Part shown: positions 1-353 of the stretch, one piece after another
Numbering within the stretch: position 1 is the stretch's first letter
Layout of the letters: each line of letters opens with the position of its first letter
From: Escherichia coli
GTDB lineage: Bacteria > Pseudomonadota > Gammaproteobacteria > Enterobacterales > Enterobacteriaceae
Direction: 5' to 3' (one strand)
NCBI RefSeq assembly: GCF_003334815.1
Contig: NZ_QOWO01000135.1
DNA: 353 bases
Notes under the pieces: generated by a model
What the model saw: only the letters and a program-made list of their open reading frames with translations
Database searches by the model: none
Told to the model about the DNA's origin: nothing
Translations under genes and position numbers: made by a program

Positions 1-353
1 CCAGCCACAGAAATCACAGCCCTGTTCGGCATACCAGTGCTCCAGCGTGCAGCTGAAACGGCGGCTTAATTCTGCAACAACGTCGCTTTCCGGCTGACAC
101 CACGGCGTGTCGAAATCCACCTGAATGAAGTTTTCCCCCTGACTGCTGATATTCAGGTCATACCCACAAGGCCACTTCACGCCATACTGTTCCGTATACC
201 AGTGATATGCAGAAGGAACACCGTTCAGAACACCACCGTTGAAGCCATTCACTTCAACATCCAGGCGGGTCGGCAGAACCGTCAGCAGGTCAAACGGCAT
301 GGTTTTTTCCGGCAGTACGTTGTCACACAGACGGTTCCACCACACCGATACAT
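1..353 (-). CDS. Internal fragment of a protein-coding gene (partial at both ends); hypothetical Trp/Cys-rich protein of unknown function
   Basis: Reverse-complement frame with codons at + strand 351..1 is open for all 117 codons (bases 352-353 belong to a partial codon). Translation: VSVWWNRLCDNVLPEKTMPFDLLTVLPTRLDVEVNGFNGGVLNGVPSAYHWYTEQYGVKWPCGYDLNISSQGENFIQVDFDTPWCQPESDVVAELSRRFSCTLEHWYAEQGCDFCGW. Codon usage is typical of Enterobacteriaceae (CTG, CCG, GGT, AAC, CAG, GAA). The only other long open frame (+ strand, 70-353) has no ATG and is rich in rare codons, consistent with an antisense shadow. No in-frame stop, so the true start and stop lie outside the window. Confidence 0.8.
22..39 (-). 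repeat. Intragenic direct repeat, copy 2 (encodes EHWYAEQ on the minus strand)
   Basis: Partner of the 187-204 repeat: same frame, 16 of 18 nt identical, both encode H-W-Y-[T/A]-E-Q. Confidence 0.6.
187..204 (-). repeat. Intragenic direct repeat, copy 1 (encodes YHWYTEQ on the minus strand)
   Basis: + strand 187-204 ctgttccgtataccagtg matches 22-39 ctgttcggcataccagtg at 16 of 18 positions; the copies are exactly 165 nt (55 codons) apart and in the same reading frame. Confidence 0.6.

Follow-up and report, generated by a model that had tools for sequence, protein, structure and literature searches.

A window of Escherichia coli DNA lies within the plasmid leading-region gene DUF1281/YubB, whose product is a possible establishment factor

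The 353-nucleotide stretch of E. coli DNA analyzed here (the window) is almost certainly an internal fragment of the DUF1281/YubB gene (also YccB, YfdA, or YafB) of IncF/IncI-type conjugative plasmids. This gene is already catalogued and its family is known; the window is identical to annotated database sequences and adds nothing new to them. We propose tentatively, giving the statement as a whole rather less than an even chance, that the product is an acidic, non-enzymatic establishment or anti-defense factor of conjugative elements that binds a host factor.

Results

Identity and distribution of the gene

Only one of the six reading frames is free of stop codons (frame -3, on the minus strand, from position 351 to position 1 of the window), and it encodes a peptide of 117 aa (VSVWWNRLC...GCDFCGW). 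A fully open frame over 353 nt was obtained in 195 of 5,000 mononucleotide shuffles. We consider the frame to be coding because of its Pfam homology, the 100% DNA match to annotated coding sequences, the excess of diversity at third codon positions, and the dN/dS of about 0.23. The sequence-only reading had placed the peptide in no recognized family, a view overturned by the Pfam matches to both DUF1281 (PF06924, E = 3.8e-14, fragment residues 3 to 60 on positions 123 to 177 of the 177 in the model) and DUF1281_C (PF18406, E = 6.7e-12, residues 63 to 116 on positions 1 to 54 of 88). The two domains occur in the right order, and the second is described in Pfam as the ferredoxin-like domain of Api92-like proteins. 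The window DNA is 100% identical to genes labeled "DUF1281 domain-containing protein," its reverse complement corresponds to L001:15001-15353, and the fragment covers residues 139 to 255 of the 300-aa RefSeq protein WP_023842311.1 (147 to 263 of the probable 308-aa protein). The NCBIfam search gave no match for the DUF1281/YubB protein. The features of the window are collected in Table 1.

Table 1. Positions of the features found in the window, with the evidence for each
Feature	Position	Strand	Evidence
Internal coding fragment of the DUF1281/YubB gene, 117 codons, both ends cut	1..351	-	100% DNA match
FCGW, start of the next beta-strand	1..12	-	Alignment
First two-thirds of the ferredoxin-like DUF1281_C domain (PF18406)	4..165	-	Pfam, AF2 model
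Helix end and beta-strand carrying S234, C239, H243, and E247	25..69	-	AF2 model, alignment
DFDTPWCQP motif (consensus DFDTPWxPP)	91..117	-	Alignment
C-terminal end of the helical DUF1281 domain (PF06924), including W143 (89% conserved)	172..345	-	Pfam
EVNGFNG loop motif (consensus EINGFNG); E171, N173, G174, and G177 79-92% conserved	235..255	-	Alignment
T6 homopolymer (A6 on the coding strand, Glu-Lys-Thr codons)	303..308		Allele comparison

Most of the places matching the window in E. coli were on plasmids (3,957 of 4,005). In PLSDB, 4,834 plasmids matched, the majority of them typed as conjugative. The whole gene is present in 3,101 of the 5,426 complete E. coli genomes (57%), which puts DUF1281 among the most widespread plasmid genes of this species. 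The composition of the peptide had been likened to that of accessory proteins of prophages, plasmids, and genomic islands. The plasmid part of this guess holds, given these counts and the leading-region neighbors of the gene. The prophage part does not: a prophage origin was rejected, since the phage search gave just two marginal matches and phages thus essentially lack the gene.

The gene is leading-region family 27 of Samuel et al. (2024, Nature 635:186), with the names YubB/YccB/YfdA/YfaB/YafB, the annotation string "Uncharacterized; DUF1281," and no function assigned. We found no functional study of the family in the literature on DUF1281, Api92, YubB/YccB/YfdA/YafB, or leading-region anti-defense, and the PADLOC defense-system HMMs gave 0 families at E ≤ 0.1.

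Protein architecture and conservation

The product is a soluble two-domain protein of about 308 aa, with an N-terminal helical domain and a C-terminal ferredoxin-like domain in the fold of Api92. The full protein matches the solved structure of Api92 (PDB 2IJR), with both the helical part and the ferredoxin-like part of the fold. At the N-terminus, a conserved strand (MPNWCxNRL) completes the sheet; at the C-terminus, the conserved tail GPxYIxxNxxHYGG follows an acidic linker. The window spans the last part of the helical domain and the greater part of the ferredoxin-like domain, for which the AF2 model predicts strands at residues 202-209, 213-219, 240-247, and 252-259 and a helix at 227-236. 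Searches of solved and predicted structures returned no structure of known function resembling the protein. A relation to bacterial STING was dismissed, since the family-profile match was borderline (E = 0.02, 16.7 bits) and structural support was absent. Among the AFDB50 matches, Zophobihabitans entericus carries at least four divergent DUF1281 paralogs, 23-27% identical to the query (A0A6G9IEM2, A0A6G9ID24, A0A6G9IEX0, and A0A6G9IE88), and in a Photorhabdus protein of 405 aa (A0A7X5TNJ6) the domain is apparently fused to a tyrosine recombinase domain.

An in-frame start codon 24 nt ahead of the RefSeq start, preceded by a GAGAGGAG ribosome-binding site, adds the motif MPNWCxNRL to the protein. 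Because this conserved N-terminus and the ribosome-binding site precede the RefSeq start in frame, the true product is probably of 308 aa and not 300. The longer start is already used in the records of NZ_CP027372 and pESBL-EA11. Many RefSeq records begin at MYFSGE... and thereby lose the conserved N-terminus MPNWCSNR (L001:14565-14588).

Conservation was evaluated in an alignment of 38 family members, with 25-56% identity to the query. The family motifs are the MPNWCxNRL N-terminus, EINGFNG, DFDTPWxPP, FCG, the acidic linker, and the terminal GPxYIxxNxxHYGG. The full gene has all of them, and three fall inside the window (EVNGFNG, DFDTPWCQP, and FCGW). In DFDTPWCQP, conservation reaches 92% for F218, 87% for D219, 89% for T220, and 73-74% for W222; in FCGW, it is 78-79% for C253 and 89% for G254, and W255 is mostly Tyr or Phe in the family. 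The other conserved Trp of the window are W143 (89%) and W198 (65%). At sixteen polar positions conservation is 70-95%, rising to 80-100% when the 20 best-conserved members are taken. S234, C239, H243, and E247, each conserved at about 73-92%, are lost independently of one another, and the spacing of the last three (i, i+4, i+8) places them on one strand face of the predicted structure. Losses are scattered and independent, with hydrophobic replacements (H243 to Y/F/M, C239 to A/V/L) even in otherwise fully conserved members, a pattern that speaks against an obligate metal site or catalytic triad. With a pI of 4.35 and a net charge of -25 over 300 aa, the protein is strongly acidic, as is the family at its medians (pI 4.7, net charge of -17.5); a few members are near neutral (pI 6.5-6.8).

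The sequence-only reading had counted 7 Trp and 6 Cys in the peptide and quoted the contexts WWNRLC, WPC, PWC, and CDFCGW. Recounting the translation gave the same numbers, and the contexts were found at residues 4-9, 60, 83, and 112. The E. coli proteome averages about 1.5% Trp and 1.15% Cys. Against these approximate values, the binomial probability of at least 7 Trp in the fragment is 2e-3 and that of at least 6 Cys is 2.4e-3, and the 15 Trp of the full 300-aa annotated protein have a probability of 6e-5. The high Trp content is partly clade specific (5% Trp here versus a family median of 2.5%); the family median for Cys is 2.7%.

Alleles and selection

Nucleotide diversity at the three codon positions is 0.028, 0.031, and 0.080, and the median dN/dS is 0.23 (27 pairs). 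From this excess at third positions and the low dN/dS, DUF1281 is a real gene under purifying selection. The 308-aa protein is intact in eight of the ten E. coli alleles. The homopolymer of Table 1 is shortened to A5 in the reference F plasmid and in the natural plasmid pOkiPb01692_1, which causes a frameshift and a stop at codon 169. In F (NC_002483, L002 4811-5781), this loss of 1 nt splits the gene into ORFs of 183 and 145 aa. At least some hosts can therefore dispense with the gene: F carries it in frameshifted form, and pO26_1 (L014) has lost the upstream element by deletion. Many truncated variants with more than 90% identity are present among the database representatives.

Leading-region context

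In pE2863-1, pESBL-EA11, and F, DUF1281 occupies the end of the leading region farthest from oriT. The genes follow each other on one strand in the order DUF1281, M.EcoGIX-type methylase, DUF1380, KlcA/ArdB, ssb, DUF905, ParB-like (HerB), psiB, psiA, ardA, and nikA/oriT. DUF1281 is thus co-oriented with ssb, psiB, psiA, and ardA, toward nikA/oriT, and can be transcribed from the T-strand as expected of a leading-region gene. Its upstream neighbor is variable (the imp operon, parM, or sopB). Downstream, all ten IncF/IncI alleles that we examined have the same succession of DUF1281, about 390 nt, and the methylase. Samuel et al. (2024) give family 27 a median position of 22 from oriT in T-strand orientation, and across 1,949 ORFs its T-strand-compatible orientation is consistent and accompanied by enrichment in the leading region.

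Distant homologs are found beside ArdA, ParB, PsiB, and PsiA, or 1.5 kb from DUF932 and a relaxase, and in two divergent lineages they lie directly downstream of ArdC. They also occur among SSB, RecT, and YqaJ genes, and one lies beside a CbtA toxin, an N6 methylase (three genes downstream), and a UvrD helicase. Others are found in long same-strand arrays of small ORFs. A non-mobile context was observed only for the most distant member, which matches DUF1281_C alone. The identification of DUF1281 with YfjB/HerB was rejected, as the "uncharacterised leading-region protein" of a July 2026 preprint is the ParB-like gene further downstream. A 73-aa "arginase" that some RefSeq records show opposite the 3' end of DUF1281 (L019:1477-1698, minus strand; also in hits H37, H56, H83, and H87) is very likely an annotation artifact.

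The upstream element and single-strand promoters

Wen et al. (2025, NAR 53:gkaf1299) describe six pESBL operons whose induction in transconjugants starts from single-strand promoters that form hairpins; one of these, a class 3 promoter, is placed "5' of M.EcoGIX," and the DUF1281 gene is not named in their text. We applied the published hairpin search to the pESBL T-strand (300-nt windows, DNA folding parameters, cut-off of -75 kcal/mol) and recovered exactly six loci. The M.EcoGIX hairpin (-88 kcal/mol), among the stronger T-strand hairpins of this region, is located between DUF1281 and the methylase, that is, downstream of DUF1281. The latter is therefore outside the M.EcoGIX operon, and the idea that it is the first gene of this zygotically induced operon was rejected. 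A "hypothetical protein" of about 103 aa, rich in Arg, is annotated at the same place as this hairpin (L001:15488-15875; pESBL [L021] 4495-4883). It lacks a coding signature (diversity of 0.029, 0.021, and 0.032 by codon position), and an indel of 1 nt shifts its frame between alleles. This ORF is probably spurious, overlying the class 3 single-strand promoter.

The 194 nt preceding the ATG of DUF1281 (L001:14371-14564, outside the window) are nearly invariant. Their diversity is 0.0115, versus 0.079 at synonymous-type sites, making this element about seven times less diverse than the third codon positions of the adjoining gene. The homology between F and IncI1 starts abruptly about 280 nt upstream of the ATG. 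The element forms a predicted T-strand hairpin of 164 nt (z = -4.0), and the most stable 300-nt stretch ahead of DUF1281 reaches -68 kcal/mol, short of the -75 kcal/mol cut-off. Along its 3' arm, the hairpin is about 74% identical over 73 nt to both class 2 promoter copies, those of klcA and ardA (E = 5.5e-4), and is putatively homologous to them. The shared core (GAnCGGGTGA, CTTGC, GCCCGGnTA, ACGGC, and TTGC-N15-TAnnnT) is also present upstream of a 40%-identical homolog, and the upstream gaps of other distant homologs fold better than shuffled controls (z of -2.8 to -4.8). No sigma-70 consensus was found on the coding strand upstream, and RNAalifold found no covariation among four upstream elements, which provide too few distinct sequences. 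Judging from these sequence features, zygotic induction of DUF1281 is plausible, and the element could be a so far unrecognized seventh single-strand promoter or a priming signal.

Two pairs of long direct repeats, 78-98% identical, are present in the same leading region: L001:18131-18430 and 25078-25377, upstream of klcA and ardA, and L001:19754-20276 and 26097-26617, upstream of ssb and of an ORF at 26646. Their published counterparts are the single-strand promoters of class 2 and class 1 (Frpo/ssi). An Rfam search of the leading region, including both pairs, gave no match.

Discussion

Possible role of DUF1281/YubB

A role of DUF1281/YubB in establishment is probable, as far as its genomic context indicates. 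The gene lies at the oriT-distal edge of the leading region, in an orientation that would allow transcription from the incoming T-strand, and is preceded by its own conserved hairpin, putatively related to class 2 single-strand promoters. Once produced, the acidic protein would act stoichiometrically: like anti-restriction or anti-defense proteins, it would bind and neutralize a host factor whose target is incoming DNA. That it works as a binder is a guess. Several results weigh against the proposal as a whole. No experiment or homology ties the family to any activity, and there was no sequence or structure match to known anti-restriction or anti-CRISPR proteins, PADLOC, or NCBIfam. The gene is outside the six recovered hairpin loci, its own element folding at -68 versus the -75 kcal/mol required. 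The charge density of the protein, about -0.08 per residue, seems to lie below that of the classic DNA mimics ArdA and Ocr, and a few members are near neutral. The frameshift in F and the deletion of the element in pO26_1 imply that at least some hosts can do without the gene.

Two alternatives start from the conserved residues. The sixteen conserved polar positions leave room for a ligand site, and DUF1281 may be an enzyme or small-molecule binder with a pocket where the helical and ferredoxin-like domains meet, which would modify a substrate or act as a sponge for a defense signal. The pocket would include D129, D159, E171, N173, D219, T220, S234, H243, E247, Y258, and the N-terminal Cys and Asn. 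The predicted location of C239, H243, and E247 on one strand face and the borderline profile match to bacterial STING (E = 0.02) fit this possibility, and the scattered losses described above speak against its catalytic form; we regard it as unlikely. The proposal of the sequence-only reading that the Cys pattern reflects metal coordination or disulfides fares worse and is highly improbable. The 6 Cys within 117 aa, including the CxxC-like GCDFCG, and the conservation of C239 and C253 at 73-79% would favor it. However, these are the only Cys of the window conserved in more than 70% of the family: C147, C200, and C223 are at 0-8% and C250 at 27%, so that the CxxC is no family feature, and no set of three or four Cys/His ligands is co-conserved across the family. 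C239 and C253 are themselves replaced independently of each other (by A/V/L or Q/E/H) in members that are otherwise intact, the crystallized Api92 clade among them. They are also predicted, from the modeled hairpin register, to lie on opposite faces of the sheet. Finally, the N-terminus MPNWCxNRL does not resemble a signal peptide by eye, hence a reducing cytoplasm is assumed.

Other alternatives concern the location of the gene. DUF1281 could be a vegetative or neutral plasmid gene (involved in maintenance, a regulator, or a hitchhiker) expressed from double-stranded DNA and unrelated to entry into the recipient. It borders maintenance genes (parM, sopB, or the imp operon immediately upstream), it is outside the six strong hairpin loci, and neither the frameshift in F nor the deletion of the element in pO26_1 led to plasmid loss. 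Yet the T-strand-compatible orientation and leading-region enrichment across 1,949 ORFs, the presence of very divergent homologs next to ArdC or ArdA, the conserved upstream element resembling a class 2 single-strand promoter, and the evident purifying selection all point away from this explanation, which we consider improbable. The constant arrangement with the methylase in the ten IncF/IncI alleles, and the distant homolog with an N6 methylase three genes downstream, raise the possibility that DUF1281 is an accessory subunit or specificity factor of the neighboring ssDNA methylase M.EcoGIX. This is very unlikely: a separate hairpin promoter for the methylase lies between the two genes, other homologs are beside ArdA or ArdC without an adjacent methylase, and the consulted parts of Fomenkov et al. 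(2020, PMC7736820) mention no partner protein.

A more ambitious form of the establishment proposal is doubtful. DUF1281 would then represent a new class of plasmid anti-defense/establishment protein, expressed from a weaker class-2-like single-strand promoter of its own (a seventh zygotic unit in the leading regions of IncI1/IncF) and neutralizing a DNA-targeting immunity factor by means of a fold without a characterized relative. The gene lies in the region on which the survival of an incoming resistance plasmid in its new host depends, and several of its neighbors there already have assigned roles in establishment or anti-defense (ArdA, KlcA/ArdB, PsiB, M.EcoGIX, and, in 2026, the ParB-like HerB). 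The structure of DUF1281 was solved in 2006, and we did not find a reported function in the literature. Assigning one would close an obvious gap in what is understood about plasmid establishment and might uncover a new anti-defense mechanism.

Comparison with known systems

The closest structural relative of DUF1281/YubB with which it shares its fold is Api92, a structural-genomics entry (PDB 2IJR) from the adhesion pathogenicity island of Yersinia pseudotuberculosis. The Api92 clade lacks C253 and most of the other Cys and Trp of the window, and relatives of Api92 are found downstream of ArdC in ICE-like islands, whereas the gene of the window is beside M.EcoGIX on IncF/IncI plasmids. Leading-region family 27 of Samuel et al. 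(2024) is the identical family, with no difference between the two, and was reported there without a match to known anti-defense proteins. The comparison with the DNA mimics ArdA and Ocr is a working analogy only: DUF1281 has in common with them the plasmid region, an acidic character, and the lack of enzymatic motifs, but it has no sequence or fold similarity to them and is not a member of their group. More generally, neither sequence nor structure comparisons revealed similarity to ArdA, ArdB/KlcA, ArdC, or anti-CRISPRs.

The YubB ferredoxin-like proteins of phages and giant viruses (170-270 aa) share the C-terminal domain (Foldseek E of 1e-5 to 1e-3; also phrog_20518 and phrog_12644) and lack the DUF1281 helical domain. 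The BFVD matches include Moumouvirus goulette (M1PN39), an Aureococcus anophagefferens virus (A0A076FMB3), and Mimiviridae ChoanoV1, as well as uncultured tailed phages, an unexpectedly wide spread for a domain known mainly from enterobacterial plasmids. At the level of expression, the nearest counterparts of the upstream element are the class 2 ssDNA promoters of klcA and ardA (Wen et al., 2025). They fold more stably, at -78 to -80 versus -68 kcal/mol per 300-nt window, and share with it the conserved core in the 3' arm of the T-strand hairpin.
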